Of a stretch of DNA of 64,000 nucleotides, positions 15,149 to 50,496 are shown one piece after another. The notes beneath the pieces are model-generated. The model worked only from the letters and a program-made list of their open reading frames with translations, did not search any database and had not been told where the DNA came from. The first letter of the stretch is position 1, and the number at the start of each line of letters is the position of its first letter. Both the position numbers and the translations under genes were made by a program. Source of the stretch: a virus; IMG/VR virus record IMGVR_UViG_3300032401_001693, positions 1-64,000 of that record. One strand, written 5' to 3'.

Positions 15149-15394
15149 ATGAAACAAGTTTATGTAGTAACGTTGGATGAGGAGTTTGAGAAGTCTAAGT
15201 TGGAGAAAGGCAGAGGCCCAGATAAGAAACCTAGAAAAAAGAGAACTAATAAGTGGGCAGGTTACAAAGAATATGCTGCTAAGATGAAAAAGAAATATCC
15301 TAATGAGCCTGCTCAGAAATGGATGAATGAGTGGACTAGTCGGTTCCCAAGTGATAAGAAGAGAATGAGAAATTTTTTGAATACGATTGGCTAG
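15149..15394 (+). CDS. leader-family basic protein (putative internal head protein)
   Basis: MKQVYVVTLDEEFEKSKLEK|GRGPDKKPRKKR. Confidence 0.7.
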   Translation: MKQVYVVTLDEEFEKSKLEKGRGPDKKPRKKRTNKWAGYKEYAAKMKKKYPNEPAQKWMNEWTSRFPSDKKRMRNFLNTIG

Positions 15395-15837: not shown

Positions 15838-16023
15838 ATGACAGACCAAGAATTCGTAGATTTCTTAAATGATTTATGGCCTTCTGAGAATCCAGAAGAG
15901 GATGAAAGACTCTGGCAGGAGGACTTTGATCGTAGGCACCAAGAGTGGCTAGAAGATGAGGAAGATCTTTTAGCTGATTTAGAAGACTACGCTCCCGATC
16001 AAATAGAGGAGGATTTAGAATGA
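15838..16023 (+). CDS. small acidic protein
   Basis: D/E-rich 61 aa. Confidence 0.55.
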   Translation: MTDQEFVDFLNDLWPSENPEEDERLWQEDFDRRHQEWLEDEEDLLADLEDYAPDQIEEDLE

Positions 16024-16199
16024 AACAAGTGTATGTAGTTAGTTTAGACGAAGAATTCGAGAAAGCTAGAGGTCCAGATAAGAAACCTAGGAAAAAGAGA
16101 ACTCGAGGGAACTGGTATGCCCCAAAAAGTTATGAAAAAAAGATGAAACGAAAACTAACTAAGGAAGGTTTTAGGGAATGGAAGAAAGAGAATGGATAA
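16020..16199 (+). CDS. leader-family basic protein (59 aa)
   Basis: Hand-translated MKQVYVVSLDEEFEK|ARGPDKKPRKKR; SD GAGGAGG. Confidence 0.7.
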   Translation: MKQVYVVSLDEEFEKARGPDKKPRKKRTRGNWYAPKSYEKKMKRKLTKEGFREWKKENG

Positions 16200-17039: not shown

Positions 17040-17126
17040 ATGAAAGAGTTGTATATAGTAAGTTTAGACGAAGAGTTTGAGAAAGCTAGAAAACTAGGAG
17101 CTAAAGATAAAAAGGAGGAAATATGA
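17040..17126 (+). pseudogene. tandem-duplicated leader fragment (28 aa)
   Basis: 83-bp direct duplication of the start of 17123-17410. Confidence 0.65.
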
Positions 17127-17410
17127 AAGAGTTGTATATAGTAAGTTTAGACGAAGAGTTTGAGAAAGCTAGAAAACTAGGAGCTAAAGATAAAAAGAAG
17201 AGGAAGAGACGTGGAGGGGGAAACCCGAATATCTCTATGAATAGATTTGTAGGTGCGGTGGAGGAACTAGAATCTAAATCTTGGAAAGTAAATGAACGGG
17301 TAAATGATTGGCTGGACGGTACAAAGGATGAGAAGTTAGATGCTTTAGCTAAGAAACATGGTGTGACTAAAAAGCAGGTTGAGGAGCACGTTCAAAAAGA
17401 GTACTATTAG
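17123..17410 (+). CDS. leader-family protein
   Basis: MKELYIVSLDEEFEK|ARKLGAKDKKKRKRR. Confidence 0.7.
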   Translation: MKELYIVSLDEEFEKARKLGAKDKKKRKRRGGGNPNISMNRFVGAVEELESKSWKVNERVNDWLDGTKDEKLDALAKKHGVTKKQVEEHVQKEYY

Positions 17411-27700: not shown

Positions 27701-27953
27701 GGTTCAGAACTTTAAGACTATAGATGAGATTAGGGCTGAGTATGATCTTAAACCATTAGGTCATGATATGGGCGGTGATGTAATAATGAATTCTGCTTAT
27801 TTGAGCTATTTGAATCAGCTGGCAATGCAAAAAATGCAGGAAGGACAGGGTGGAGGTCCTGGAGGTGGTGAAGATTTTGGTCAAGAGGAAGGTGCAGAAG
27901 GCGAGGAGCAACCAGACTTTGGAGAAGAGATGACACAAGGTGAAGAAAAATAG
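24753..27953 (+). CDS. portal protein with intein
   Basis: AIINTRVNQV, DSLTYDQ, YGVSELE, F|S.GSAPKGII, KGLRPLL, TIDEIR. Confidence 0.92.
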   Translation: MAIFDFLFKGKIDQEVVKRVTEVEQRMVEVSDQKVQEKARELTAQWQEQLRKAQETAEAKSLLRDPFQLLETLKYKERPMMLTYEVLRSMSERNPIIAAIINTRVNQVSAFSSPPKSPYDVGFQIVLKNRKEKPDKNDETRMEEIQNMVSNTGVSSLLQEERDNFDTYLRKVTRDSLTYDQMAYEIINGRGNYPVAFLAIDASSIRLATTARYFKDIMGLRGFAAPPKIETDMGSIQKESLRPEDIRYVQIIDSRVMTTYTEQELGFGIRNPRTALRQNGYGVSELEILVNTVTAHLWAEEYNRRAFCLSLRNYCRTKAGVFQLKDLIGKTFEVWNGRDWAKARAFATGIRPLVRTKLWNGLELETSPEHKFYVIPKDTVTGEPEWKEQKDLQPGDYALLSCQDCDFPMNYDLLKVGKLYGEPKKVSVWVEPHTKEQKDQAVKHNGHFQTIGNQYSKTLSRIEVRPYTQILKSKTIEVSGYEMNFTPYDRGKQWIPTKEVVEDPEFWKMIGFALGDGYWGKSSLPIAPNPYREYDITERFSSVCQKYNIQHTKSSEGICIRHKGVLEWLYDLGFVSTEDSKKDDRCIPPVFFRLPSWIRCALLSGLFSADGTNEGYRWAGTPSFGVKGVRFRLSVLKCLWSVGVASNQRGSGWRIEHGGILVQDVAAFARKIGFLQTDPKSIKSRDNLVRSESSKSRWDRLHPTLSKILANKIYDEHRKYSTNGSNQYEKKGIGNSPLSKRDGWLIVGASCGGHKLSRPRAIGMLESLGLEVPEWLRTFMQTPVDVLDKEPIGYEPMGDIEVFDDKHLFLANFVAVHNSQGSAPKGIIQLEGNVPQDQLNEFRRQWHAQIMGVFNAWRTPIINTPSGKLNYVDLSRSNKQMEYSNWIDYLIKIACAVYLIDPSEIGFDMRGGAQTAQPPVFESHGESKQKMSRDKGLRPLLRFLQTEVNKDIVYRVYDGRYEFEFVGLDAKTEEQLQEMRLKEVQNFKTIDEIRAEYDLKPLGHDMGGDVIMNSAYLSYLNQLAMQKMQEGQGGGPGGGEDFGQEEGAEGEEQPDFGEEMTQGEEK
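25674..27206 (+). mobile_element. intein with LAGLIDADG endonuclease (511 aa)
   Basis: Starts CLSL, ends AVHN|S; IGFALGDG and LSGLFSADG motifs. Confidence 0.9.
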
Positions 27954-31952: not shown

Positions 31953-33905
31953 ATGGTAACTATGAGAAATCAGAAAAAGTTTGGTTGGATTCCAGATATT
32001 CCAGATGTAAGAGACTTATTTTATAAAGCACCGAAGAAGGTTATCAAAGAGAGACCTAACTCTTGGGATCTTAGGTCAAAAATGCCAGAAGTCTGGGACC
32101 AAGGCGCATTGGGCAGTTGCGTGGCAGAAGCTGTGGCGGGTGATCTTCAGTATCTACAAATTGTTCAGAATAAGGAGTCTTTTACACCTTCTAAACTGTT
32201 TATCTATTATAATGCTAGAGAGGTAATAGGAACAGCAAATGAGGACTCGGGGGCTATGATAAGGGACGGTATAAAAGTGGTAAATGATTATGGCGCCTGT
32301 AGAGAGATTCCTACCTGGCCCTATGATATAAGTAAGTTTAAAGATAAACCTAGTGAGTTGGCGTATAATGAGGGGTTAGAACATCAGGCTCTACTATATC
32401 AAAGGGTGGAGCAGAATGATGTGGAAATAGAAAGTCGCCTTTTCGAGGGGTTTCCAGTAGTAGTAGGAATCTCAGTTTATCAATCTTTTATGGCGGCTGA
32501 AAAGTCTGGAGAGGTTCCGATGCCCGGTTTAACCGAAAGCCTACTAGGCGGGCATGCTATTTTGATAGTAGGATATCTTAGAAATAACCTAAGTTTGATC
32601 TGGAAACCTTGGAATTGGTTTAGTGGGAGGACTCTAGATGGTAAGTTCATCTGTAGAAACTCCTGGGGTTCAGACTGGGGGAAATGTTTGGCTGGTCATA
32701 CTAAGATTTCTACTTTGGATGGTAGAGAAGTTTCTATAGAAGAACTTCATGCTTTAGGAAAAAAGGTATGGGTGTACTCCTACGACACTTCTCTAAGGAA
32801 GATAGTTCCAGCTCTAGCCGAACCTATTTCTTCTGGATATAGATCAGATATGGTAGAGGTTAAGCTGGACAATGAGGAATCTATTTTGTGTACTTCAGAT
32901 CACCTATGGATGATGAGAGATGGGAGTTTTAAGGAAGCTTCAAAGCTGGATACTGGTGATAGCTTAATGCCTCTTTATAGGGGTAACAATCATGGCTACG
33001 AGAAGTTTCTTTCTCCTAGTAGTATGAAGTGGATAACTACTCATTGGAATGTAGTTCATAGTCTTGGTATAAGGTCATTTGAAAATCATTTAGACGGCTG
33101 CGAGGGGAATTGCAGATTAATAGTACATCATCAGAATTATAATATTAAGGACAATACCCCTGAAAATTTAAAATTAGTTCCTGAGTGTGTGCATCATAGA
33201 ATCCATGAATGTTCAGAGAAGAGAGCTGAAGGTATAAGGAGAGCCTGGTCTGAAAATTACGATAGATTATCTAAGATTTCGGCGGAAACGTTTCGTGAGT
33301 ATAATAGGAAAATTGCAAGTGGGGAGCTTTGTTTAACTGAGAGGCAGATAGAGGCTAGGAGACAAAACGGAAGAAAAGCTGGTCTTATTAGTAATAGTGA
33401 GGAAAGTGTAGAAAAGTGGAGGAATACTTTGATTGAAAGATATGGAGAGGACTATTTTTCAAATACAACTCTGTTTGGGTTGTATAAGGTACTATTTCCT
33501 AATACTAGTCTTGATGAGTGGAAGGCGATTAGAGACACCATACCAAAAGAAATTTACGGTGAAGCTCAGAAAATTAGAAGTGGGGATAAAATTAGCAAAA
33601 CTTTAAGAAGAAAATATGAGAGTGGGGAAATAGTCATAACTGAGATACAAAAGCAAGCAAGAAGTGAAAATGCGAAACGGCTTAATGCAGTAAGGTGGGG
33701 TACGAACCATAAAGTTGTTAGTGTGGAACAGGTTAATATTTCGGTTCCAACTTATGATCTTAGAGTGGAAAGAGAAAATTGTAATAACTTTGCTTTATCC
33801 TGTGGCGTGTTTGTCCATAACAGTGGATACTTCACAATCCCCTATGATTACATACTAAATTCCGAGTTGGCAGATGACTTCTGGACGCTAACCTTGGTGG
33901 AATAA
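31953..33905 (+). CDS. papain-family (C1) cysteine peptidase with intein
   Basis: DQGALGSC, GGHAI, RNSWG..WG|intein|SGYF. Confidence 0.9.
   Translation: MVTMRNQKKFGWIPDIPDVRDLFYKAPKKVIKERPNSWDLRSKMPEVWDQGALGSCVAEAVAGDLQYLQIVQNKESFTPSKLFIYYNAREVIGTANEDSGAMIRDGIKVVNDYGACREIPTWPYDISKFKDKPSELAYNEGLEHQALLYQRVEQNDVEIESRLFEGFPVVVGISVYQSFMAAEKSGEVPMPGLTESLLGGHAILIVGYLRNNLSLIWKPWNWFSGRTLDGKFICRNSWGSDWGKCLAGHTKISTLDGREVSIEELHALGKKVWVYSYDTSLRKIVPALAEPISSGYRSDMVEVKLDNEESILCTSDHLWMMRDGSFKEASKLDTGDSLMPLYRGNNHGYEKFLSPSSMKWITTHWNVVHSLGIRSFENHLDGCEGNCRLIVHHQNYNIKDNTPENLKLVPECVHHRIHECSEKRAEGIRRAWSENYDRLSKISAETFREYNRKIASGELCLTERQIEARRQNGRKAGLISNSEESVEKWRNTLIERYGEDYFSNTTLFGLYKVLFPNTSLDEWKAIRDTIPKEIYGEAQKIRSGDKISKTLRRKYESGEIVITEIQKQARSENAKRLNAVRWGTNHKVVSVEQVNISVPTYDLRVERENCNNFALSCGVFVHNSGYFTIPYDYILNSELADDFWTLTLVE
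32685..33821 (+). mobile_element. intein with HNH endonuclease (379 aa)
   Basis: Starts CLAG, ends FVHN|S; VHHQNYNIKDNTPENL..H..IH. Confidence 0.88.
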
Positions 33906-34948: not shown

Positions 34949-35641
34949 ATGGAAAGGATAACCATGAGTGAAGTTAAGTTCCTAAAAGCTAGGATGCTGA
35001 GACCAGTGGGTGAAGATCCTCACCATAAAGCCTATACTCGTATAAAAGGAGGCAAACTGCAGAGAATTCCACAGAAGGGTGCTATCCTGCAGGAACGTGG
35101 TGAGATTCCTAAAGAGGGAGCTAGAGATAGGCTTGGTAATGACTATGCTAGATTTTCTAAGGATTTGGATGACTATTTTTCTTTGGACGTTGATCTAAAG
35201 AAACTAAAAAAGCAAGTGGAAGAATACGCTACAAAGAAAGAAGGTGTGATGTCTAGGATTCGTCCTTTACTATCTAAATTTGAAAATCTATCCAAAGAGG
35301 AGAATAAGTTTCAGACTGAGTTTGAGGCTAGTGGATTTAAGCATAAGTTTTTATCCTACCCAAGGGAAACTCTTCCCTACAAGGATTTGTTTGAGGAATC
35401 GTTCAAACGTCTTACTTCTAAAATGCAGAATGAAGTGGAGGGGTTGAAAGGTACTTTAAAACGAATAACAGCTATGGAAAAGTTCGAACGTATAGAAAAA
35501 TCCAGTAGTGATAAAATAGCTGATTATCTTAAGAATATCATTAGGTTAAAAGAAGAAGCAATTAAACATATGAAGACGATGGATGCTACTATTCATGGTA
35601 GGTTAGAAAAATCTCTATTTGTTATAGTGGAAGAGGAATGA
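34949..35641 (+). CDS. arm-bearing coiled-coil protein
   Basis: FLK|A..., KAYTRIKGGKLQRI, LEK|SLFVIV. Confidence 0.6.
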   Translation: MERITMSEVKFLKARMLRPVGEDPHHKAYTRIKGGKLQRIPQKGAILQERGEIPKEGARDRLGNDYARFSKDLDDYFSLDVDLKKLKKQVEEYATKKEGVMSRIRPLLSKFENLSKEENKFQTEFEASGFKHKFLSYPRETLPYKDLFEESFKRLTSKMQNEVEGLKGTLKRITAMEKFERIEKSSSDKIADYLKNIIRLKEEAIKHMKTMDATIHGRLEKSLFVIVEEE

Positions 35642-35931
35642 ACTACGTAATATTAAAAAAAGCTAAAGCCTACTCAAGAGTTAGACATGGTAAGTTGGAA
35701 CAGGTTAGAGCTACTCAAGGAGTAGCTTCTCAGGTGGTTCACTCTGAGGTGCTTAAATTGGTAGACAAATATGTGAAACTAATTCGTCAGAAGAAGGCTG
35801 GCAAAGATGTAGACAGCAAGATAGCTAAAGTTATGAAAAGATTAGATAGGTTAAGAAGCGGTGGCCATTTGCAGCCACCTAGGTATGGTGGTTCTGCTAG
35901 GGGTACTAGCACTTATAAGTTAGGATTTTAA
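35638..35931 (+). CDS. MNYVIL-leader basic protein
   Basis: MNYVILKK|AKAYSRVRHGKLEQVR. Confidence 0.65.
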   Translation: MNYVILKKAKAYSRVRHGKLEQVRATQGVASQVVHSEVLKLVDKYVKLIRQKKAGKDVDSKIAKVMKRLDRLRSGGHLQPPRYGGSARGTSTYKLGF

Positions 35932-37412
35932 TGAAGTATATTATCTTAGAAAAAGTAAAACTACCTAATGTTGTACTAGAAAAAGCCTGGAGACATCATA
36001 GGAGGCCACTGGTAGCTAGAAAGGTTCCGGTTAAGCCAAAAACTGGAAGGCCCTATTTAGCAATAAGATGGACAGCGGGAGCTAGGACAGAGGAGTTGGG
36101 GGGAGATGTAGGCCGTCAGTTGAAAGCGTTAGTAGGGGAACTTACTGACCGCAGAGAAAAGATGTATATGAAGTATTATATCAGATATTTGTATGGTCAG
36201 AGGGGTAAGCCTGCCTATCCCCGCCCGTTGATGGATCCTATAGAGAACAGAGTAAGACCTGATATTCGAGATAAACACAGGTTGAAGGATTTTGAACGTA
36301 TAGCAAGAAGTATTATGGTAAACTTACCTCGCGCGAGGCATCAAGAAGCAGGTGAACCTCCAGACGTAAGATTAGACGAAAGAGCAGATAGGGAAGCTGA
36401 AAGGATGGAAAGAGAACGGAACCTTCCACCCAGGGCTGGAACTGAAAGAACTCAAATTCAGAGAATAGGAGTTGATTCTAACAAGATAGCAGAATACCTG
36501 AGAAAGAAAATAGCCCAAGGTCAGTATACTACTTGGGAAACTGCTATGGCTAGGGTAAAAGAAGTGTTTCCAGACCAATCTGATAGTAGATATGAGAGGT
36601 CATTGGAAAAGGCAGGACTTAGGAAACCTAGGCCAGAAGGTATCAAACTCGAACCCAATGAGTGGGAAGCTATAAGGGCTTTACCAGGTGGTCCACATAA
36701 GGAGTATTTTCAGGTTGGAGCTTTAGACGAAGTTGAAAAACTAGGTGGTGGAATAAATCAAACCTTTAGGATGAAGTTTAAAGATAATGGAGAAGGGTGT
36801 TGGAAACCATCTTGGGGTGAATCTCCGGCAAGGGCAGGCTTTATTAATAGGGGTTTTAAAGGAGAGTACTTCAGGAGAGAAGCAGCTACTTATTCAATAG
36901 CTAAGGTACTTGGGTTAGATGATTTGGTTCCTGAAACTTATGTTAGGAATGATCCTCAGGAAGGGGTAGGATCAGTAATGAGTTGGGTATGGGATGGTAA
37001 TGTGGAAGGTGGTGGGGATAGGAGAAATAGATATAAAAAAGATGAAATAAGAAGTGGGTTTTTAGATTTTATGTGTGAAAATATGGATAGGCACGGCCGT
37101 AATTTTTTCGTTACGAAGGGGGGCAAATTACAGTTAATAGATAACGGTTTGTCTTTTGGTAATAGTGATAACAGGTGGGATTTTACGCATAATGGTGAGT
37201 TAGTTGAAAGGGTGTTAAATAAAGAAGTTCCTCTAGAGCTTATGGAAAAGGTGGTAGATTCACAGGGGGAGGGAGAAAATGTTCTTAGGGTACTAGGTTT
37301 TGATAATAAAGCTATTAGTAACTATCGTAAAAGAGTAGGGATTGTTAAGAAGTATCTAGACAAAGGAAAAGCTATGTTGGAAGACCTAGTTGATGACTGG
37401 AGAAAATCATGA
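35931..37412 (+). CDS. HipA/PI3-PI4-kinase-like protein kinase with leader
   Basis: GGGIN, WKP, REAATY, VPETY, GSVMSW, DRHGRN, IDNGLSF. Confidence 0.8.
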   Translation: MKYIILEKVKLPNVVLEKAWRHHRRPLVARKVPVKPKTGRPYLAIRWTAGARTEELGGDVGRQLKALVGELTDRREKMYMKYYIRYLYGQRGKPAYPRPLMDPIENRVRPDIRDKHRLKDFERIARSIMVNLPRARHQEAGEPPDVRLDERADREAERMERERNLPPRAGTERTQIQRIGVDSNKIAEYLRKKIAQGQYTTWETAMARVKEVFPDQSDSRYERSLEKAGLRKPRPEGIKLEPNEWEAIRALPGGPHKEYFQVGALDEVEKLGGGINQTFRMKFKDNGEGCWKPSWGESPARAGFINRGFKGEYFRREAATYSIAKVLGLDDLVPETYVRNDPQEGVGSVMSWVWDGNVEGGGDRRNRYKKDEIRSGFLDFMCENMDRHGRNFFVTKGGKLQLIDNGLSFGNSDNRWDFTHNGELVERVLNKEVPLELMEKVVDSQGEGENVLRVLGFDNKAISNYRKRVGIVKKYLDKGKAMLEDLVDDWRKS

Positions 37413-37666
37413 TAACTGTAAAGACTTATTCTATAGAAAATGGTAAAGAAATACAAAGGAGTGTAGCCTGGGATGGTGAGAAGTTTATACCATCGGATAA
37501 TAGTTTAGCATTGAAATCTATGCTAAAGACTCCCATTTATGTTCCTGCGGATTCTGGTAAAGATAGTTGGATAGATCCCAAGAAAGACCCAGAGCAGTTT
37601 ATTAGAAAGCTTTGTTGGCAGTATAAATCCTATATCTTTAGGGTTAGTGAGCCTGAGGAAATATAA
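37409..37666 (+). CDS. small protein coupled to the kinase gene
   Basis: ATGA overlap with the kinase stop. Confidence 0.55.
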   Translation: MITVKTYSIENGKEIQRSVAWDGEKFIPSDNSLALKSMLKTPIYVPADSGKDSWIDPKKDPEQFIRKLCWQYKSYIFRVSEPEEI

Positions 37667-37690
37667 ATCTGGAAAAGTATTGGAGTTAGT

Positions 37691-38482
37691 ATGGCAGCTA
37701 TTCATAAATATAATAGGATGTTATTTAAAGTTTGTGCTGAGAAAGGCTTTTGGTTAAGACCTTTGGGTGAGCTTGATGAATATGAAATGTGGTTAGTTAG
37801 AACACGTGATATTTATTCTTTTGATCATCAGGATCCTAAGATTTTGATATTAGCTGGTTTCCATGGGGAAGAGGTGGCAGGTCCCTGGGCTATTCTCAAA
37901 TGGTTGAACACTCAATGTGATGAGAAATGGTTGGATAAGGTGGATGTGTCAATCATACCTATAGTGAACTCTTATGGATTTGCTAGGAGAAAGCGCTACG
38001 GTTCACAGGGAATAAAAACTAATTCTGGTTTTTGTCATACTGAGAAAACTGGGGAACAGCTTTCTCCAGAAGGTAAGATACTGATGGATAATATAAGTAT
38101 TATCCGTCCATTGGCTCAGGACGGATTTTTGTCACTTCATGAGGATGTGACTACTAAGGAATACTATTTGTATACGTTTGAACATGGTACCAGATCGGGT
38201 AGATTTACTAGCGGGCTTAAAAGGGAGCTGTGTAAGTATTTTCCTAAGGCGTTTGAAGGAATAGCCTATACTGATGCCAGTGAAAAAGAGAAAGGGCCTA
38301 TATGTAAAAAAGGGATAGTTTACAAATTTTGTGATGGTTCGTTTGAGGATTTTATGTTTCATTCAGGGGTGCCACGGGTTGCAGTATCGGAAACGCCCGG
38401 AAAATATAAATTGCAACGTAGAGTGAATGCAGGAGTTGGAATTATACAGAAATTTCTAGAGTTATGTTTAAAGGAGCGGTAG
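37691..38482 (+). CDS. M14 zinc carboxypeptidase/desuccinylase-like protein
   Basis: AGFHGEE, PIVNSYG, LSLHED. Confidence 0.8.
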   Translation: MAAIHKYNRMLFKVCAEKGFWLRPLGELDEYEMWLVRTRDIYSFDHQDPKILILAGFHGEEVAGPWAILKWLNTQCDEKWLDKVDVSIIPIVNSYGFARRKRYGSQGIKTNSGFCHTEKTGEQLSPEGKILMDNISIIRPLAQDGFLSLHEDVTTKEYYLYTFEHGTRSGRFTSGLKRELCKYFPKAFEGIAYTDASEKEKGPICKKGIVYKFCDGSFEDFMFHSGVPRVAVSETPGKYKLQRRVNAGVGIIQKFLELCLKER

Positions 38483-39211
38483 AGTTTTGATAGTTGATAA
38501 GTTGTATAAGAGGGAAATTGTAAAAGTCTTGAAAGCTGATATGTCTTCACATAATCATACGGTTGCAGTAGATGCCAAAATGAATGCAATGTTTGTAACA
38601 TGGTCGTTAGTCGAAGACTTGGAGTTGAATCCCGGTGATGAGATGACGGTGGATGTTAGAATTCTTGTCGAAAGGAGAAGCGACATGGGGAAGCAATTTT
38701 AATAATAGCGTCTGTGATTGTTATGGGTTTTATATTTTTGCTGCTATTATTTTTAGGGTTTAAACTTGTAGGGTTGAAACGTTGGAGGTGATATGAAAAA
38801 CGAATTTTTTGTTAGCAAGTGTTGTAGAGCTGAGGCGCAGATTGTATTTTCAGACTTTCCTGATTTTATAGGAGATGATCCGAAAAAACAGAAAGTTGGG
38901 ACTTCTTGGTTTAGGTGTACTAAATGCGATAAGCCTTGTGATATTCTACCTTTAGAAGAGGTTTTTAAGAAAGAGGAACCAGAGAAAGATCTATGGAAGT
39001 GGTCGCTTACTATAACGCACGTTGATAACGGCTATCTGCTAGAAGGGCTTTCGTCAAATATGGGTGTTCCTATGAGTATGGTTATAGAAGATGACGAAGA
39101 GGACGAGCTTAAAAGCCATGAGTCGTTACTTTGGCAGGTAATGGAGTATTTTAATTTTGGTGGTTCGAAGCATGATCCAGTTCGTTTGAGGATCATAAGG
39201 GAGAAAAAGAA

Positions 39212-39778
39212 ATGAACTACGTAATTCTAAAAAAGTCTGTGGAAGGAAAGGTAATAGAGTTTCTTGCTGACAATCCAAATCCACCTGATAAGAAGATTCA
39301 TGACTTGTCGGATAGGCTGAAGATTAAAACAGACAAGTTTGAGGCGAAGATCTATGGGGTGCTTAGTGATGTTATTGAGCATGGAAATGGAGTAAAAGCT
39401 GACCCAAAAGAGTTAGCTATGGGTATCAAAATAGAAATGGAGCATACTAAGTATCCAGAACTTGCTAAATACATTTCTTTGGCCCATTTGAAAGAGATAC
39501 CGGACTACTATACACGCCTTAAGAAGATGGAAGAGGAAGCAAAAAGTATTAATAAAGCAGTAAAAGATTCTAAAACTATTACGATAAAGTGTTCTAAGCA
39601 AGCTTCGGAAGATCTTATTAGATTATTAGAACATTTGAAAGTATGGGGAAATATAGGACATTCTGGTAGTATACTGGCTGATCCGCCCTATGGTATTAAG
39701 GTTCCTAAAGATGGTAAAATGTTTGGTTTCGATGGTGACGGTTCGTCAAAGATTTGGAGTATAAAAGAATCCGAATGA
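39212..39778 (+). CDS. MNYVIL-leader protein with DUF5661-like domain
   Basis: DPKELAMGIKIEMEHT...HLKEIPDYYTRL. Confidence 0.7.
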   Translation: MNYVILKKSVEGKVIEFLADNPNPPDKKIHDLSDRLKIKTDKFEAKIYGVLSDVIEHGNGVKADPKELAMGIKIEMEHTKYPELAKYISLAHLKEIPDYYTRLKKMEEEAKSINKAVKDSKTITIKCSKQASEDLIRLLEHLKVWGNIGHSGSILADPPYGIKVPKDGKMFGFDGDGSSKIWSIKESE

Positions 39779-41802
39779 ACTACGTAGTCTTAGAAAAAGC
39801 TAAACCATATTTTAGAACTCGTAAGGGAAAGAGGGAGTTTGTGAGAGGTTATGTTTCACGAGTTGCTGTTCTGCCAACTCCAGAGCAACAGGAGCAGGGC
39901 AAGACGGGGCTAATGGAGTATTTAGAAGCTGTAACTAAGATGTTTCCTAAAGAAGCTAAACGGGAAGGCCGTGAGTACTCCAGTGTTGAGGAGTTTGTTC
40001 TTAAGCATGGTAAGTTTTATACACCTAAGGAGCTTCCCAAAAATGTTCTAGAGGGTAAGGTAAAAGACTGTTATATGAATGCTTGGCATTTGGCTACGGA
40101 AAGAAAAGATCTGACCTATGTGGAGGGGTATGCAGCCAGTGTGATACCTGTTATGCACGCTTGGTGTGTAGACAAGCAGGGGAATGTTATTGATCCAACA
40201 TGGGGAACTGGTAAAGCATACTACGGTGTTCCTTTTACGACTGACTATATTATGAAGACTGCTATGAGAAGGAAGTATTTTGGGATTTTAGACAACTATC
40301 AGGAGGGCTATCCTCTTTTAAAGGAGAGACCAAAAGAGGGTGTGATAGAAAAGTCCTACCATGTTGTTATGGAAAAGGCTACTCAAACTGGGCATAAAGC
40401 CTATGCTAGGAGTGTTAAGGGTAAGCTTCAACAGATTAAGCCAAAGGGATTTGTAAGGAAGCCTATTCCTAAGCGTAGGGAGAATGTTGTAGAGACTGTG
40501 GTTAGAAGTCAAGCTAGGAGAAAGGCTGTTCAGAGAGAAGAACCTATGCCAGAGTTTGATCAAACTACTGATATGCTTTCTGAGGCAACCGAAAAGTTGA
40601 AAGAGCAGTTTGATATAGATAAAAAACATTTTGAAGGGACTATTTCTTATCAAGAGATTAAATCTCAGATGGATAAGAATCTGAAAGAGATAAGGACTGA
40701 GAATTCTAAAATTAGAGAAGTTTCTGGTTTTATGGATACCGATAATGCTAGGTCAATAGCTGCTAATATGAGAAATGAGTTAACAGTATATACTAAGTAT
40801 CTAGCAGGTGATTCTGTTGATCTTATGCATAAGTTTGTTAGTCTAACTGAGACTACTATTGAGAACGAGGATCTTAAAGGGATTGATGCTAAATATCTGA
40901 GCGACATGTGTGTAGATAGTATAAAGAAGCTGGTACACCAGGAGATAGAATCTAATAGGCAACAGTTTACTGACCACGGTGTTAGACATATAGTTAAGAA
41001 TATACTTAACCAGAAAGATATGTTAGATTTACTTCAATCTTCTGGAATAACTGTTTCTCCTAAAGATAGGCTTTTGGCTATTTTTGTTATGATAAATCAT
41101 GATGTTGGTTATACAACTCCAGTGATTAGAGGTGGTGGCATAGAAGGAATAAAGGCTACTAAGCAGCATGGTGTCTATGGTAAGAAAATAGCAGAAGAGC
41201 AAAAGGATTTATGGAATGTTGATAAGATATTTAGTGAGGAAGAGTATAATAGGGGGTTGGATATAATCGAAACCCATGATTCTGTGGATATGGATACTAA
41301 AGATCCTGTGGCTTTGACTACTAGGATTGCTGATAACTTGTCTCTATTCCAAAAAGAGAAACTTCCCTCAATGTTTGAGTATGTAGAAGGAGCAGAAAGG
41401 CTTCTAGTAGCGATGGGAGTGGCCGCTAAAAAAGACGAGAAAGAGGGATTTGAGAAATACAGAGATCAGTTGTACAAAAAAATAGATAAGGCTAAGTTCA
41501 GTCCAGCTTTAAAACGGGATTTAAAAGCTGGGTGTAAAGAAATTAGTTTCCTTACTCCTAAGTTTACGGTAGGTGTTTTAGCAGGTGAGATAAGTAAGAT
41601 AGGTAAGTCTGATAAGAGTCTTATCCAAGTGACTATAAAGCATAATAAGTTTGATGAAACATTACAGAAGCTCTTTGATGTGGGACAGCAGCAGGTAACG
41701 AAGCTACTAAAAGATTATGGTGAAACTGATTTCTCAAAGACTGAGTACCATTTAGGGAAGTATGGAGATAAGTCAATTTTGGAGTTAAAGGTAGAGAAAT
41801 GA
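39775..41802 (+). CDS. leader/arm protein: papain/transglutaminase-like domain plus HD domain
   Basis: MNYVVLEK|AKPYFRTRKGK; CYMNA..HAW..DPTW; DHGVRH..HDVGY..HD..ADN. Confidence 0.7.
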   Translation: MNYVVLEKAKPYFRTRKGKREFVRGYVSRVAVLPTPEQQEQGKTGLMEYLEAVTKMFPKEAKREGREYSSVEEFVLKHGKFYTPKELPKNVLEGKVKDCYMNAWHLATERKDLTYVEGYAASVIPVMHAWCVDKQGNVIDPTWGTGKAYYGVPFTTDYIMKTAMRRKYFGILDNYQEGYPLLKERPKEGVIEKSYHVVMEKATQTGHKAYARSVKGKLQQIKPKGFVRKPIPKRRENVVETVVRSQARRKAVQREEPMPEFDQTTDMLSEATEKLKEQFDIDKKHFEGTISYQEIKSQMDKNLKEIRTENSKIREVSGFMDTDNARSIAANMRNELTVYTKYLAGDSVDLMHKFVSLTETTIENEDLKGIDAKYLSDMCVDSIKKLVHQEIESNRQQFTDHGVRHIVKNILNQKDMLDLLQSSGITVSPKDRLLAIFVMINHDVGYTTPVIRGGGIEGIKATKQHGVYGKKIAEEQKDLWNVDKIFSEEEYNRGLDIIETHDSVDMDTKDPVALTTRIADNLSLFQKEKLPSMFEYVEGAERLLVAMGVAAKKDEKEGFEKYRDQLYKKIDKAKFSPALKRDLKAGCKEISFLTPKFTVGVLAGEISKIGKSDKSLIQVTIKHNKFDETLQKLFDVGQQQVTKLLKDYGETDFSKTEYHLGKYGDKSILELKVEK

Positions 41803-41977
41803 GTAGTGAGATTCTAAATTTTCTTATATTAGTAGTGAGTGTGCTTTTGAATGTAATTCTTATTGCTCTAACTATTCTAGCATTTCAGGCTTGGGAACAT
41901 ACTTTACTAGGTTTTGTATTTTTGACTGCGGTTTTTATGGTAACTTTTGGGATTTATAAGATGCTGGAAAGAGCTGG

Positions 41978-42511
41978 ATGAACTACGTAATATTAGAAAA
42001 ATCTCAGGTTAAAGGATTTACTAGGACTAGAAAAGGTAAGATGGAGAGAGTAAATCCTTTTTCAAGGAAGGGTGAGAAAAAAGTTAAATCTGTAGTTTTT
42101 CTTCATGGCACGACTACTGCTGTTTTGGAAAGTATACTGAAACATGGGTTAACAGCAAAGGCAGCAAGAATGTCTGTATTTATAGATACGAAACAGGGAT
42201 TTAAGAGAGGGGTATTTCTTACGTCCGATAGAAAAACTGCTGAGGCGTTTGCTTCTACGGCTTGGAGAGAGAAAGGAACCACATCGGTAGTTTTAGAGAT
42301 TAAGATTCCAGACGGCGAGAAATTGTATGGTGATCCTCCTCATAGTTCTAGGTTTCATGTAGGGAATATTCCGGCCTCTTGGATAAAAGCCTATTCTATA
42401 CAAAGTTCAGGCAGAAAATGGTCACGCACTCTTGTTAAGTCAAAACAGGAGCAAATTTTCTTTGTTCCTGTAGTTATTGTTAATACAAAGGAGAAAGAAA
42501 ATGATAAGTGA
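41978..42511 (+). CDS. leader/arm protein with ADP-ribosyltransferase (Tpt1/PARP-like) fold
   Basis: HGT....SILKHGL, GVFLTSD...A..FA, VVLEI, IPASWI. Confidence 0.65.
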   Translation: MNYVILEKSQVKGFTRTRKGKMERVNPFSRKGEKKVKSVVFLHGTTTAVLESILKHGLTAKAARMSVFIDTKQGFKRGVFLTSDRKTAEAFASTAWREKGTTSVVLEIKIPDGEKLYGDPPHSSRFHVGNIPASWIKAYSIQSSGRKWSRTLVKSKQEQIFFVPVVIVNTKEKENDK

Positions 42512-42715
42512 ACCAATTTTGACTGGAGACTGGAGCAACTGCGCAGTTATTCAACCTAAGAGATCTAGGATGAGGTGGTGTCCCACCTGCCAGGAACTGC
42601 ATGATAAAGGATCTTTTCTTAGATTTCATGGTAGCACAATGGGTTGTATGACAAAGGGTAGGAGTAAAGCTATGGCAAAGATAAAAGGTAGTAGCAAATA
42701 AAAGGAGGTAGATAG

Positions 42716-43123
42716 GTGGCAGAAAAAGTTTGGAGAGATGTAAGTATCGGGAAGGTTACAAGACCCATGTTGTGCCCAGATCTGGTAAGGCAGCGATGTG
42801 CGGTCGAATTTGTTACCGATCTAGGTATGAATGACTTTCCTTTTATGGAAGGCTATTTAGTTTCATTTCTAAAGGAGCTGAGTGTGGGTTTAGGAATGAA
42901 AATCTTCATGGGTCCAGTTGTAGGGAATGATCTGAATGAAGACACAAGGGAAAGTGGTCCTTCCGCATTTGTTGGTTGGACTACTAGTGGGGCTCAAGTT
43001 CATTGCTGGCCATTCAGAGGATTTGTCTCAGTGGACGTATACTCGTGCAAAAGATATAATGTAGAGTTGGTTTTGAATCTGATCAAGGAGTACTTTAAAC
43101 CTGTAGAATTGGTTATTTTTTAA
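42716..43123 (+). CDS. speD: S-adenosylmethionine decarboxylase-like proenzyme
   Basis: GPSAFV..TTSGAQVHCWP..GFVSVDVYSCK (TS replaces the canonical ES). Confidence 0.6.
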   Translation: MAEKVWRDVSIGKVTRPMLCPDLVRQRCAVEFVTDLGMNDFPFMEGYLVSFLKELSVGLGMKIFMGPVVGNDLNEDTRESGPSAFVGWTTSGAQVHCWPFRGFVSVDVYSCKRYNVELVLNLIKEYFKPVELVIF

Positions 43124-44184
43124 AGGAGGTGAGAGTATGAAGAAACTGGAAAAGAAGAATGAGGAGGTTGGTATTCTAAAGATTTTGAAGGAAACTCCGG
43201 AAAAATGGGTCAAAATAGACGTTGAGATGAGTGATTCTTTAGTAGCTGCATTGATAGGTTATGCTAGGGAGAGGATGACTGATGAGGACATAAAAGAATA
43301 TCTCATAAACTGGTCATTTATAGATATTCTGAAAAAGCAGATTGCAAGGGAGAAGAGAAAATGAAAAAGACGATAGTGATGCTATTTCTTATGTTGGGGA
43401 TTACTTTTATTTATAACCCTCAGACGAATGTCGGGTTTGTTTACATCAACGATGCAGATTTTAATGGGATCATTATGGTAGATACGTCTACCAATGTTTT
43501 GCGTTATTACAAGGCTGTAATTTTTCACGAAGAGCGGATGAACTTTGACAAGTGGCTACAGGATAAGGTTGATAAGGGATTTCCATTCAAGTCGTCTATT
43601 ATTCCGTTTGGGAGGCAGTATGAACAAAAAAGGTACTAAGCCAAAGAAAGAAGTTGTTGAGATGTCTAATGGAAAGAAAGTTCTTGGAGTCCAAGCCAGC
43701 CTGAAAAATTTACTAATCGCTACAGCATTGTTGTTTGGTTTCTTAGGTGGATTTTTCCAGGTTTATAGTTGGATAGATAATACATATCTTAGAGCCAAAC
43801 ATTTTCAGGAGGTTGATGCCCTTAGGAAGAAGTTTATAGAAAATGTTTCTGATAGACTGGATTTTAAGAGTGAAAGTGATCTTCTAAATGCCTGGTATAT
43901 TAGGTATTCTACGTTGGATAATCTTTTTAAGATGACACCAGATAGAAGCAAAATACCAGCAGAAACTATGGCAGAGTATAACGAGTTGCCAGGAAGGATA
44001 AAATTGCAGGAGTTGAAGGTAAAAGCACTGCAGGAGAAACTCTGTAAGTGAGGGTAAAAAATGGAAGAAAAATGCGCAGTATCTAATAAATGTACTCCAC
44101 TTTGTTCTGGATATAAAGAACGAGGGCAGTGTCCTGCTTGGTATCAGGCGGAGAAAAAGAAGAAGTGGGATAGGAAGAGGAAGG

Positions 44185-45061
44185 ATGAATTTCGTTATAC
44201 TAGAAAAAGCTCAAGTTCGAGTTAAACCCCATACTGCAACTATTAGGGGTAAAATAGTTCAAGTGAGGCAGTATACTAGGACTGATTCTAGGGAGAGGTC
44301 TTTGGATGAGAGGACTACTGGATTACTGGAGGTTGGGGCCTATCCAAAGCTGCCGGAAGAAAGGTAAACTGGATGATATTGAAAAGTTTAATGTTAAGGT
44401 TGCAAATGAAAAAATGACTAAAGAGAAAATACTTAATGCTTTTGTTTTAGATATACCTGATGCAGATAATGATGTGGGTATTAAAGCGGCATTTTGGGAC
44501 GAAAACGATCTAGATGTTCAGGTTCAGTATCGTGTTAATAGAAAACATGCAGGAAGGAGCCATCTATACATCTACTATGATCCAAAAATAGATGGGTATG
44601 TCTGTTCTTTCTCTCTTATGGAGCTGGAGGCAGGATTTCAATCTCAGGGTTATGGACACAAGTTTTTTAAGAGATTGGAAACTAATTTGAAATCTTGGGG
44701 TGTTAAAGAGATAAGGCTTTTTGCCGATCTGGATGTTGGTGGATATGCCTGGGCTAGGTTTGGGTTTGACTTTTTGAACGCTCAAGCAAGAAAGATGACA
44801 GTTAATGGGTTTATTAGAGTTCTAAATCTTGAGTATAACATTCAGGAGGATGCTGACAAGTTTAACCATCCTTGGGAAGTTGCAGTCTACAAAGGTCCCA
44901 ATGGAGAGCCGATAGGAAAGAAGTTTCTTTTGGGACAAACAAGGTTTATGACGGGCCATGATTGGTTGGCTAGTAAGACTTTAGATGAAAATAGTCTTGG
45001 TTGGAAAGTAGGAGAGGACTATGAAAGATCAAAAGCCAAAGTTGGGACCGCTACAGCATAA
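44185..45061 (+). pseudogene. leader/arm GNAT acetyltransferase split by a +1 frameshift near 44355
   Basis: 44185-44367 carries MNFVILEK|A; 44306-45061 carries FQSQGYG and GGYAWARFGF. Confidence 0.65.
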
Positions 45062-45290
45062 AAGCACAGACGATCGAAAGTTCCACGATCCAATAGACTC
45101 TAAAGCTGATGAGCTCTGGAGGAATAGAATCGCAAAATTGTCTGAGCCCAAATTGGTAATAATAGAAAAAGCTGGAAGAGTAAAAATGGGGCAAGAGGAA
45201 AAGAAAAGGCGGGGTAGGGCTAAGGCTATTGAGAAAAGGGCTGAGAAAAGGGAAGATATAGAGGCTTATGGAGAGGCGTTAGAAGATTAG
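45021..45290 (+). CDS. small protein overlapping the GNAT end
   Basis: SD GAGG; contains LVIIEK|A. Confidence 0.5.
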   Translation: MKDQKPKLGPLQHKSTDDRKFHDPIDSKADELWRNRIAKLSEPKLVIIEKAGRVKMGQEEKKRRGRAKAIEKRAEKREDIEAYGEALED

Positions 45291-45385
45291 AAATGAGTGT
45301 TTAACCTTTAATTAATTGAGGGTAAACTCTAAAGTATATGGTGGCCAGATATTTGCGTAAGAGCAGGTATTCACGGAGTTAGTGG

Positions 45386-45724
45386 ATGTGGATCAAGATA
45401 AGAAAACTAAATAAAGCTATTTATCCTGGAAATTTAGGTTTGGTAGAAATGCATCAGTTTGTCAAGGAAGCTCCTGTGGGTCAGGCTGAGAAGTTTGTTC
45501 AACTACTGAAACAGGATAAAACTAGAGAAGCTGTAAAAATGTTGGAAGAGTTCACAAAAAAGAAGTTCCATCCGTCTATTCATGGCCTAAATCTTTTGCC
45601 TTCTCATAAGGATCCCAAAAAGAAGAGATGGCAGCATGTACTTTTACAAAAAGCTAAACCATATACTAGAACTCGTAAAGGCAAGTTTGAGAGAGTAAAG
45701 GGCTATAACAAAGGCTTGGAATAA
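45386..45724 (+). CDS. arm-bearing small protein
   Basis: LNK|AIYPGNLG; LLQK|AKPYTRTRKGKFERVKGY. Confidence 0.6.
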   Translation: MWIKIRKLNKAIYPGNLGLVEMHQFVKEAPVGQAEKFVQLLKQDKTREAVKMLEEFTKKKFHPSIHGLNLLPSHKDPKKKRWQHVLLQKAKPYTRTRKGKFERVKGYNKGLE

Positions 45725-45771: not shown

Positions 45772-48700
45772 ATGCCTAGAATAAGAATTCCTAAAACAGC
45801 TATAACTGAACCTATAACCACAATTTATGCTGATCAAGTCACTCAAGCCGTCAGACAAAGACAGATGAGTAAGATCGATAGGGAATCTCTGCGCTTGATC
45901 ACGCGTATCGACGATGACATGAGAGATAGGTTAGGAGCTTTACTTCGGGAAGGTGTAGAGCAAGGTAGATCAGTTTCAGCCACTGCAAGTACCCTCTTGA
46001 AAACAGGTCTGGACAAAGGCACGTTTAGATCAGCCAGGCGCAGAGCTTGGATGATAGCAAAGACTGAGCTACACCGCGCACGAATGCTTGCTGCCCGAGA
46101 TGTTTATGAAGCTAATGGTATTGATTTAGTTAAATGGATTGGAATAGGAGATGAGCGTATCTGTCCGGTGTGCGGTAGGATGCATAATAGAGTTTTTCGT
46201 TTAAGAGATATAAGAGATGAGCATCTACCACCAGTTCACCCTAGGTGTAGATGCAGGGTCGTCCCAAGTGACATGCAAATGGATATAACAGTAAGACATG
46301 ATAGAGAGGGAAAAGTGGTAGAGTCGAAAGTGGCACCAAACCCGCATGATTATCTTTATGTAGTGAAGCTTAAGAAGGCTTTAGAAGACCTAATGAAAGC
46401 AGTTCAAGTTCGTGGGGAAGATTTAGTACAAGGAACTCCCTTATTCAAAGCTGATGATAATGAAATAGATTTAGAGAAGAGCGAATTTTCATCTACTCAG
46501 GTTAATCTACCTAAGGTGTTAGCTTCTAAGGTTTTGAATACTGTTAAACTTATAGATCCAGATGACCTACATCCTACAGAGAAACAAGATGACGCTCCAC
46601 ATATTACTGTTAGATATGGCATACTTCCAGAGGTTCCACCTAAGCATGTAAAAGAAATACTTGATCATCCAGGAAAGGTAAAAGCCAGTATTACTGGTGT
46701 AGATGTTTTCCAACCCGAAGACAAAGACTATGATGTTTTGGTTTTTAGGATTGATAGTCCAGATCTTAATTTGCTTAATGAAAAGCTAAAGCAACTGCCA
46801 CATGAAGATACTTATCCATTTTATCAACCTCATTCTACTATTGCTTATCTGAAGAGAGGACTTGGAAAAAAATATGTAAACTTAGTAACTGGTCTTGAGG
46901 GGGAAGAAATTGAGTTTGACACAATCAAGTTTTCTGATAAGGATTATAAAAAGGTTAGTATTGACTTAGAAAAGGCTTTTGGAGGGCTAGAGACGGAATT
47001 AGAAAAAGCCAGGCCCTACATCCGAACTAAAAAGGGAAAGTTAGAGCATGTAAAGGGCTATCCACATAGGCCACGACTATTTGATGTAAGTCCTGAGAAG
47101 AGAATAGAAAGGGCTTTGGAGCCTACCCGAGAAGATGTAAAAATGGTTAATAGGATCTCACATGAGATACACGCAATAGGTGGTAGAGCTCTAATAGTGG
47201 GTGGGTTTGTTAGGGATGCTTTACTAGGCAGACCAAGTAAAGATATAGATGTTGAGGTCTATGGTGTTAAACCAACCGAACTTAGGAGTGTTTTAGATAG
47301 GATAGGTAAGGTAGATGCAGTAGGTGCTTCGTTTGGCGTTCTAAAAGTATCTGCTCCAGAGATGGATGAGCCACTGGATGTTTCTATTCCTAGAAGAGAT
47401 TCTAAAGTGGGTACTGGCCACAAGGGTTTTATTGTGGAAGCAGATCCTGGAATGACTCCTAAAGAAGCTGCCCTTAGAAGGGACCTTACTATTAACTCCC
47501 TTGCCTATGATCCTATTACTAAAGAAATAATAGATGAGTATGGTGGACTTCAGGACATAAAAGATCGCAAATTAAGTGCTACCGATGATACTACTTTTGT
47601 GGAAGACCCACTTAGAGTACTTAGAGTGATGAGATTCTCTGCCCAGTTAGGGTTTAGTCCTACGGTAAAGTTGGCTTGGCTTTGTAGGAGTGTGGATTTG
47701 ACTAGCTTGCCTAAAGAGAGAATCTATGGAGAACTAGAAAAGACTCTAATGTCTAAGAATCCTAGTATTGGGTTAATGCTTACCAAGATATTAGGTATAA
47801 ATAAGATATTGCCAGAATTAGAGGATCTTAGAACCACAGAACAAAGTCAAGAATTTCATCCGGAAGGGGATGCGTTTCAGCATACTCTACAAGTGATCGA
47901 CTCTGCATCCAAACTAAAAAAGGGTTTCTCAGATAGATCAGATCGTATTGTCTTAATGTTTAGCGCACTTTGTCACGATATGGGTAAACCTCAGACCACA
48001 GAGACTACTGCTGAGGGTAAGATTATTAGTCATGGGCATGATGCTGTAGGGGCTGAGGTAGCTAGAAAGTTTATGGAAAGGTTGACTAATGAGAATGATT
48101 TGATTGATCGAGTAGAGATTCTAGTGCGTTCACATATGGCGCCTACCAATCTATACCAAGCTAAAGCAGGAGATTCAGCTATTCGTAGATTGGCTAAAAA
48201 AGTTGATATACCTATGCTTGTCGCACTATCAGCTGCAGATAAGAGGGGACGTGATATAAAGGTTGATCTAAAGGCTGAGAGTTGGTTAATGAAGAAATAT
48301 AGGACCCTACTGTTAAATAGACCTGAGACTTTAGAGGCAAAAGTAAGGGGTAGGGATTTGATACCTTTAGGAATCCAACCAGGTCCTGATATGGGCAGAT
48401 TACTGAATAAGATTTATTCAGCTCAGTTGGATGGTAAGTTTGAAACTATGGAACAGGGATTGGACTATGCTCGTCAACAGGGATGGCTGGTGAAGGGGTT
48501 ATTTGGATATGACATAAATAAAGCAGTTCCGGTGAAAGGGTTTACCAGAACTAGAAAAGGTAAGAGGGAGATGGTTAAACCACATACTAGGACTGCTAAA
48601 CAAAAGATGACTGCTCTTGAGGCTTTTGTAGGTGGGGCAGTTCCAAAGAAGGGTTGGCAGAAAGAGGAGGCTGATAAATTCCTAGAAGAAGTTAATCCTA

Positions 48701-50496: not shown

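Follow-up and report, generated by a model that had tools for sequence, protein, structure and literature searches.

When a phage fuses several unrelated enzymes into one long protein, how might the single enzymes be set free? This question is raised by an open reading frame (ORF) of an uncultured, ~102-kb phage, IMG/VR virus record IMGVR_UViG_3300032401_001693. The DNA analyzed here, hereafter the window, covers the first 64 kb of its single 101,811-bp contig, with genes almost all on the plus strand. The ORF runs intact and without stops from 45772 to 50496 on that strand, between the portal gene (24753–27953) and the genes for the prohead protease, a scaffold-like protein, and the major capsid protein, and encodes a protein of 1574 amino acids (aa), P0001. 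An initial annotation had taken it for a MuF polyprotein whose enzymes are separated by protease sites and repeated basic arms; its coordinates and length are exact, and the MuF domain is recognized by Pfam (PF04233). We consider it probable that P0001 is a virion-packaged polyvalent effector made of cassettes, which the prohead protease would resolve at h-x-K↓A/S junctions (h, hydrophobic; the arrow marks the predicted cut), leaving the arms on the enzymes. Each cassette consists of a hydrophobic-x-Lys↓Ala/Ser site, an ~18-residue basic β-hairpin arm, and an enzyme domain; MuF precedes the cassettes, and a KOW-like barrel ends the protein.

Domains and junctions of P0001

The domains follow the order initially annotated: MuF, a 2H phosphoesterase, a CCA-adding/HD enzyme, a minimal nucleotidyltransferase (NTase), an HExxH zincin-like domain, and a small β domain that resembles KOW/Tudor barrels. 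MuF (PF04233 at aa 57–163, E 7e-13, 49.7 bits against a cut-off of 29.6) and CCA/HD are Pfam matches, 2H is supported by motifs and its AlphaFold2 (AF2) fold, and the NTase and zincin-like domains by motifs and weak profiles. The 2H region (~aa 269–362) scores slightly below the Pfam cut-offs for 2_5_RNA_ligase2 (26.2 versus 27) and Acb1 (21.5 versus 27) and contains H277-I-T and H354-S-T motifs in a confident fold, with a predicted local distance difference test score (pLDDT) of 80–91. The next enzyme combines a PolyA_pol head (PF01743 at 474–601, E 1e-19, 71.6 bits) with an HD domain (PF01966 at 702–824, E 2e-10, 41.7 bits); its G-G...D-x-D and HD motifs (477–495 and 735) are those of class II CCA-adding/poly(A) polymerases, and phage CCA enzymes are 30–38% identical to this region. 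The NTase has G-S...D-x-D at 989–1005, a match to NTP_transf_2 at only E 0.057, and language-model look-alikes that point to the same family as a lead only. For the zincin-like domain, which carries HEFGH at aa 1369–1373, Pfam offers M78 at only E 0.3, no PDB sequence matches, the AF2 model is poor, and a language-model search of the Atlas gives a lead, and only that, to the polyvalent-protein domain LPD1 (0.92). PDB sequence searches with the NTase, zincin, and protease regions returned nothing usable, and a search for homologues of aa 940–1574 among shorter proteins gave two matches. The last 82 residues are modeled with confidence (pLDDT 83–94) and compare structurally with KOW/Tudor-like barrels (Z 6.2, root-mean-square deviation 1.3, 47 residues aligned). 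With MuF, 2H, CCA/HD, NTase, HExxH domain, and barrel, P0001 has the composition of a polyvalent protein, that is, at least two unrelated effector domains in a packaging/transfer gene context.

What lies between these domains? P0001 has 14 matches to the motif [LIVMF]-x-K-[AS] where 4.0 ± 1.9 are expected, a count reached in 0 of 2000 composition-preserving shuffles. The excess requires a hydrophobic residue at P3, Lys at P1, and Ala or Ser at P1′; it is gone with Arg, Glu, or another P1, with other P1′ residues, with a non-hydrophobic P3, or with the motif reversed, and we therefore rejected an artefact of composition or helix content. All of the sites quoted in the initial annotation are present: LKK↓A (K202), LMK↓A (K209), LFK↓A (K226), LEK↓S (K236), LEK↓A (K401), LVK↓G (K906), LSK↓S (K1126), and LKK↓S (K1482), together with LEK↓A (K412), INK↓A (K917), and VLK↓A (K1150), each of which has an arm behind it. 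These last three give the CCA/HD, NTase, and zincin-like enzymes an arm of their own, as had been proposed. Four further matches end at K1274, K1471, K1492, and K1537.

Within MuF (10–188), 2H (240–398), and CCA/HD (441–905), 803 aa altogether, there are no A/S sites, while the 142 residues between them hold seven, six of which sit in segments with pLDDT below 50. In the AF2 model of aa 1–470 (19-sequence alignment, mean pLDDT 70.7), pLDDT falls below 50 only at 1–9, 12–15, 189–204, 206–236, and 401–415. The low-confidence stretch 189–236 holds K202, K209, K226, and K236, and 401–415 holds K401 and K412; around them the model places MuF up to residue 188, 2H at 240–398, an arm hairpin at 417–426 (strands 417–420 and 423–426), and the start of the CCA domain at 441. 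Comparing modeled domain boundaries with motif positions, the check proposed with the initial annotation, thus puts the sites of aa 1–470 into low-confidence linkers and none into folds. The C-terminal model is poor, so the status of the linkers there rests on homology: BLAST alignments with relatives break at 906–921, 942, 1146, and 1452–1482.

The prohead protease, the arm, and stand-alone genes

If the junctions are cleavage sites, which enzyme would recognize them? Across the genome the motif averages 0.39 per 100 residues, and in the acidic scaffold-like protein it reaches 3.85 (9 motifs versus 0.9 expected); the protease has 8 versus 1.7 and the portal 2 versus 2.3. In the capsid protein the motif is found once, at K30↓A31, where a short N-terminal propeptide ends. 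This protein is 41–45% identical to those of SPO1-like Herelleviridae and about 26–28% identical to those of Kayvirus; SPO1 Gp6.1 aligns with it and has the same L-N-K-A-L-x-A-G. K30 aligns with residue 24 of the 463-aa Kayvirus precursor (5lii_P), of which the 439-aa mature chain (9row_B) begins at S25, the Kayvirus cleavage position being taken from PDB chain lengths and the Sa87 sequence. In Kayvirus Sa87, VVK24↓S25 is the only motif of the capsid protein, an acidic scaffold-like gene has 7 versus 1.2 expected, and the protease has 4 versus 1.1. In the open literature we found no explicit statement of a Herelleviridae capsid cleavage site. The Cps protein of Listeria phage A511 is reportedly cut between Lys and Ser, an observation said to go back to Loessner and Scherer in 1995. 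Given the enrichment in the scaffold, the alignment of the capsid site with the Kayvirus mature N terminus, and the motif-rich Kayvirus scaffold, h-x-K↓A/S is very probably the cut site of this prohead protease.

Aligned homologues conserve the protease blocks N-W-D-H-G-K and L-G-L-S-L-E-G-K; all six share the Ser block without change, and the His block reads N-W-N-H-Q-K in homologue P0189 and is missing from the truncated P0149. With a homologous protease and capsid protein and a Lys at the aligned propeptide end, the system is of the Herelleviridae type, and cleavage in this phage would follow the same pattern. A search of IMG/VR for close relatives of the protease found none. A stretch of the protease at aa ~236–262, L-E-A-G-x-D-I-P-A-T-x-G-G-V-S-G-S-A-L-R-x-E-S-L-E, copies the N terminus of the mature capsid protein and is conserved in homologues P0182, P0151, and P0189; it may be a mimic of the capsid N-arm that co-assembles the protease into the prohead.

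The arm that follows many of these sites has the consensus K-P-Y-x-R-x-R-x-G-K-x-E-x-V-K-G-Y, some 18 residues that are strongly basic and predicted to form a β-hairpin. The arms of P0001 score 43–56 bits against a profile of seven window copies, partly by construction since the profile included these three. Genome-wide there are nine clear copies, all in real plus-strand ORFs between 34.9 and 53.4 kb, and the profile finds no significant match elsewhere in six frames of the 102-kb genome. One copy, which five protease clusters have in common, follows K312↓A of the protease. Among 1.84 billion representatives, a profile search found the module in 250 protein clusters (E ≤ 1e-3). Within the best 150 proteins, 79 of 202 instances stand at the extreme N terminus behind an 8-aa leader, M-N-Y-V-I-L-E-K, which is strongly conserved there (P3 to P6 at 60–82%). 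A second leader type (…T-L-D-E-E-F-E-K), unrelated to the first, ends in the same h-x-K↓A/S site, and the P1 residue of the tag, as we call the unit of leader, site, and arm, is invariably Lys. Internal copies keep the arm and lose the N-Y-V-I pattern of the leader, which suggests that the leader is used for loading and that the arm has its role on the mature fragment. Of 247 identical arm residues, 126 are encoded by different codons; selection acts on the arm peptide, and a DNA-level recombination linker was rejected on this ground.

Two side observations concern the arm. The first hairpin of the C-terminal barrel of P0001, K-K-I-P-Y-R-N-D-N-G-K-V-V-W-A-K-V, is arm-like, a hint that the free arms are descended from it or dock in the same way. 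Two relatives without the R-T-R-K-G-K arm, P0006 and P0009, have another hairpin-like module in 2–3 copies after the same site, K↓A-R-S-H-K-Y-I-R-R-E-G-x-P-G-x-Y-x-Y-F-Y, and the junction arm may belong to a broader family.

Do the cassettes move? Relatives P0002–P0016 are 37–65% identical to P0001 in the MuF-2H part and carry other domain sets, including RadC, ART-PolyVal, PBECR-type and HATPase domains, and inteins; in P0008, an intein with LAGLIDADG lies inside the CCA domain. Many carry the arm, up to six copies, and every listed arm is preceded within 3–13 residues by h-x-K-[A/S/G]. The bare site is enriched in the close relatives P0002–P0013 and P0047 (z 3.4–6.6, except P0011 at 1.6 and P0012 at 2.6), arm-less ones included, and is not enriched in distant polyvalent proteins. 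The IMG/VR loci L001 and L004, which encode P0013-like proteins, have one arm each. In P0047 an arm-zincin cassette precedes the arm-CCA cassette with breakpoints at the sites, which argues that a site travels together with its arm and domain. The arrangement of junction 4 is the same in P0004 and P0005. The 244-aa stand-alone gene product P0119 is 53% identical to the NTase, and its leader-K9↓A10-arm aligns residue by residue with K917↓A918-arm-NTase; P0086, P0125, and P0080 are stand-alone tagged matches to the zincin-like domain. By these alignments, the junctions of the polyprotein equal the gene starts of stand-alone tagged genes.

Table 1. Features of the P0001 gene and of related genes in the window (positions in nucleotides, nt)
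Feature	Position	Strand	Basis and remarks
P0001, putative MuF-anchored polyvalent cargo polyprotein	45772–50496	+	1574 aa; relatives P0002–P0016
MuF (SPP1 gp7-like) head-morphogenesis domain, aa 10–188	45799–46335	+	PF04233, AF2 fold; 0 A/S sites within
Linker 1, aa 189–239: K202, K209, K226, K236, decayed arm after K209	46336–46488	+	pLDDT <50; intact arm here in relatives
2H phosphoesterase (Acb1/LigT-like), aa 240–398	46489–46965	+	H-x-T/S at 277, 354; pLDDT 80–91
Junction 2, aa 399–440: K401, K412, arm 1 (aa 413–430, nt 47008–47061)	46966–47091	+	pLDDT <50 at 401–415; arm 43 bits
CCA-adding tRNA nucleotidyltransferase head and HD, aa 441–905	47092–48486	+	PF01743, PF01966; 0 A/S sites within
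Junction 3, aa 906–944: LVK↓G, INK↓A (K917), arm 2 (aa 918–939, nt 48523–48588)	48487–48603	+	55 bits; hairpin 924–935
Minimal Pol-beta-type nucleotidyltransferase, aa 945–1116	48604–49119	+	G-S...D-x-D; stand-alone tagged homologue P0119, 53% identity
Junction 4, aa 1117–1175: K1126, K1150, conserved 24-aa spacer, arm 3 (aa 1151–1172, nt 49222–49287)	49120–49296	+	56 bits
HExxH zincin-like (LPD1-like lead) domain, aa 1176–1468	49297–50175	+	HEFGH at nt 49876–49890; tagged homologues P0086, P0125, P0080; contains K1274
Junction 5, aa 1469–1492: K1471, K1482, K1492	50176–50247	+	Site before last domain in all relatives
KOW/Tudor-like small β barrel, aa 1493–1574	50248–50493	+	Always last domain in relatives; K1537 in strand
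Prohead maturation protease, 420 aa, 8 sites, K312↓A and arm (nt 53316–53387)	52380–53642	+	phrog_1028, E 5e-48
Acidic scaffold-like protein, 234 aa, poly-Glu run, 9 sites	54451–55155	+	9 sites versus 0.9 expected
Major capsid protein, K30↓A31 (codon 55287–55289)	55200–56630	+	phrog_752, E 2e-96
Cargo island: stand-alone genes starting with leader, site, and (usually) arm at 35638, 35931, 39212, 39775, 41978, 44185; plus 45386–45724	35638–45724	+	Leader/arm profile

Tag carriers that match Pfam families include ART-PolyVal (ART, ADP-ribosyltransferase), C39 peptidases, Tad6, YunG-like proteins, exotoxin-type ART, and GNAT, and amount to an effector repertoire. Several genes of the cargo island upstream of P0001 have features of their own. 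The leader-bearing 493-aa product of 35931–37412 ends in a PI3/PI4-kinase-like domain (Pfam E 2e-7), and its C-terminal part is 36% identical to the C terminus of polyprotein P0067. The 675-aa product of 39775–41802 is a two-cassette mini-polyprotein, with an N-terminal leader and arm and a second, internal …H-V-V-M-E-K↓A and degenerate arm (~nt 40390) before an HD-like C-terminal part. The gene at 45386–45724 encodes 112 aa with a short K-L-N-K↓A leader at the N terminus and a site and arm at the extreme C terminus, where cutting would free a 20-residue arm peptide. The 60-aa ORF at 44185–44367 consists only of leader and arm, and a GNAT-like ORF of 251 aa (44306–45061) overlaps it in a different frame. 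Since P0070 (229 aa) has tag and body in one frame, the window copy looks frameshifted, and the split at 44185–45061 looks like a pseudogene, an assembly error, or recoding.

The small proteins encoded at 15149–15394, 16020–16199, 17123–17410, and 53953–54387 begin with the second leader type, M-x-x-V-Y-V-V-S/T-L-D-E-E-F-E-K↓A/S, and are extremely basic, with K/R runs after the site. By analogy with the internal proteins (IPs) of T4, these are candidates for DNA-condensing internal proteins. Two window genes contain intein-splicing domains, the portal gene and a gene for a papain-like cysteine protease (31953–33905).

Proposed release by the prohead protease and other readings

Is P0001 in fact cut? 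A precursor held in the prohead with a dozen sites in flexible linkers, each with the signature of the resident protease, should be. Linker placement, the scaffold and capsid signature, and the identity of junctions with gene starts agree with the processing that the initial annotation had predicted, at the level of sequence. Several points weigh against such processing. The AF2 model of aa 880–1574 has a mean pLDDT of 49.8 from too shallow an alignment, with only the barrel and two hairpins interpretable, and low-confidence helices are drawn over K1126, K1150, K1482, and K1492. K1537, in a conserved V-L-L-K-S, belongs to a strand of the confidently modeled barrel and shows that a match to the motif need not be a site; in the model, K1537 is probably structural and not cleaved. 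The initial annotation had treated sites inside folded domains as one observation that would tell against it: for aa 1–470 the sites are in linkers, while K1537 is in a fold. K1274 falls inside the zincin-like region, where the model is poor. In addition, the N-terminal leader is far more conserved than a cut site alone would require, which points to a function of the module beyond cleavage. Finally, tblastn found the tag in no GenBank phage, and no cultured relative carries it. In IMG/VR, protein patterns for the tag matched 17 stretches, none confirmed, and a degenerate DNA pattern had 0 matches; JGI metagenomes gave 20 mostly short tag contigs, too short for head-gene context, with three tagged genes in tandem on contig L022 and further polyproteins on L019 and L025.

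Might P0001 instead stay whole, with the K-A/S dipeptide and hairpin forming a structural or nucleic-acid-binding linker, such as a three-stranded mini-sheet, that spaces the domains and binds DNA or RNA? The strong conservation of the residues before the Lys in N-terminal copies and of the spacer at 1127–1150 in P0004 and P0005 would fit such a linker, and transfer of N4 virion RNA polymerase (vRNAP), ArdC, and TraC1 takes place without cleavage (PMC5512222), which also weighs against processing here. However, the bare site occurs without any arm: it is 9-fold enriched in the scaffold, present at the end of the capsid propeptide, and enriched in arm-less relatives. Moreover, two unrelated leader types converge on the h-x-K↓A/S ending, and it is hard to see how the protease would spare a prohead-tethered protein whose disordered linkers contain a dozen consensus sites. 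We regard an uncleaved P0001 as rather unlikely.

It is also conceivable that the embedded HExxH domain processes P0001 itself, in the head or after injection, with the prohead protease uninvolved. The HEFGH motif with its LPD1-like lead is in place, and autoproteolytic release by metallopeptidase (MPTase) domains was proposed in 2017 (PMC5512222). However, the motif is also found in the scaffold and at the capsid propeptide, which are prohead-protease substrates in the homologous Kayvirus system, and stand-alone tagged cargo genes have the site without a zincin in cis. The site-enriched P0006, P0009, and P0010 have no Pfam peptidase, a weak argument since Pfam misses the P0001 zincin too. Self-processing therefore seems improbable to us. 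Least credible is that the motifs have no function and arise from helical linkers rich in Lys, Glu, Ala, and Leu or from a recent duplication of the DNA: linkers and scaffolds are indeed rich in these residues, but the shuffles, the motif-variant controls, and the codon comparison already contradict the idea, and the module is conserved in 250 protein clusters.

If the prohead protease does resolve P0001, how would the products be used? In the scheme that follows, the steps of cleavage, packaging, and ejection are inferred, as is what the arm does. MuF would bring the precursor into the prohead, via the portal by analogy with SPP1 gp7. There the Herelleviridae-type serine protease would cut after the Lys of the linker sites, trim the capsid propeptide at K30↓A31, and degrade the scaffold. 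The predicted products are MuF (~1–202/236), 2H (~237–401/412), arm-CCA/HD (413–906/917), arm-NTase (918–1126/1150), arm-zincin (1151–1471/1492), and the barrel (1493–1574). With arms on their new N termini, the arm-bearing fragments would be laid out like mature stand-alone tagged cargo. Most probably, if on weak support, the arm would tether the fragment to the packaged genome or, at an earlier stage, to the poly-Glu scaffold, resulting in retention in the head and exit with the genome. This function is the weakest step of the mechanism: the strongly basic, predicted hairpin fits DNA binding, and recruitment to the assembly core would fit too, given the arm on the protease and the poly-Glu run of the scaffold. 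The enzyme set (a cyclic-nucleotide/2H esterase, tRNA 3′-end repair, an NTase, and a putative metallopeptidase) suggests, from family knowledge and earlier work (PMC5512222), that the enzymes act as pre-made counter-defence at infection.

A more speculative idea, which we put forward tentatively, is that leader, site, and arm together make up a portable capsid-cargo address that suffices by itself: loading would fall to the leader or MuF, cutting by the protease would uncover the arm, and the arm would act as a DNA tether or ejection handle. In that event, any arm-bearing protein would leave the capsid with the genome, and the polyvalent proteins of this lineage would be head-to-tail fusions of addressed cargo genes. 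Packaged effectors might then be read from metagenomic phage genomes, and the rule could be reused for loading foreign proteins into Herelleviridae-type capsids.

Polyvalent proteins and processed cargo in known systems

Polyvalent proteins were defined by Iyer, Burroughs, Anand, de Souza, and Aravind in 2017 (PMC5512222), who noted MuF fusions to 2H and NTase domains, likened polyvalent proteins to the polyproteins of RNA viruses, and proposed release by an embedded MPTase or a C-terminal assemblin-like peptidase. The zincin-like MPTase is their commonest, although not obligatory, hub domain. Like these proteins, P0001 has an N-terminal MuF, unrelated effectors (2H, Pol-beta NTases, putative zincin MPTase) encoded beside head genes, and rapid domain shuffling. 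No junction sequence was described for them, whereas the junctions of P0001 combine the probable site of a separate prohead protease with a portable basic hairpin that is also the N-terminal tag of stand-alone genes. The novelty that the initial annotation saw in polyprotein-style processing is thus narrower, as release by peptidases had been proposed; we found no description in the literature of the defined junction cassette, of its identity with gene-start tags, of the conserved basic hairpin, or of the arm on the protease.

Polyvalent proteins are common in phages and plasmids, and release of their domains has so far only been proposed. Here the junctions match a protease specificity that has a structural precedent in the mature Kayvirus capsid chain, which yields exact predicted cut positions and fragments. 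Applied to gene starts, the same rule flags an ~20-kb island of likely virion-packaged effectors, among them ADP-ribosyltransferase-like, HD, GNAT-like, and kinase-like proteins, and pre-made counter-defence enzymes could thus be predicted from sequence in uncultured phages. The basic hairpin, which has no described counterpart, might serve as a handle for protein delivery by phage capsids.

The Herelleviridae (Kayvirus phi812/K, SPO1, A511) share with this phage a homologous capsid protein and protease (phrog_1028), a propeptide removed, by prediction in this phage, after Lys at the aligned position, and a scaffold rich in h-x-K↓S; the cargo island and MuF polyprotein are, in contrast, specific to the uncultured lineage, and no GenBank phage has tag or arm. 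We know of no MuF-anchored multi-enzyme precursor or repeated arm module in the phiKZ group. In phiKZ, 201phi2-1, and SPN3US (PMC5694885; PMC7411985; PMC10052503), one prohead protease (gp175/gp245) cuts many ejection or inner-body proteins at S/A/G-x-E, some at several places; protease specificity and lineage differ from those found here. DarA and DdrB of P1 and the vRNAP of N4 are likewise large packaged proteins with anti-defence or early functions. They are unrelated in sequence to P0001 and have no repeated junction module; DarA and DdrB undergo proteolysis either ahead of packaging or in its course (PMC5512222), and N4 vRNAP is uncleaved.

Together with phiKZ and SPN3US, T4 provides the experimental precedent for cargo processing. 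Its cargo proteins (IPI–III and Alt) are packaged and injected, and the prohead protease gp21 removes their leader at L/I-x-E. As in the phage studied here, a short leader ends in a hydrophobic-x-charged protease site of which the scaffold is full. The P1 residue is invariably Lys in our case rather than Glu and the leader of 8 (or about 14) residues shows no sequence likeness, such that the tag resembles a T4 capsid-targeting sequence in its working only. Unlike in T4, a conserved basic hairpin behind the cut would stay on the cargo, and the same unit is reused internally to build a polyprotein.

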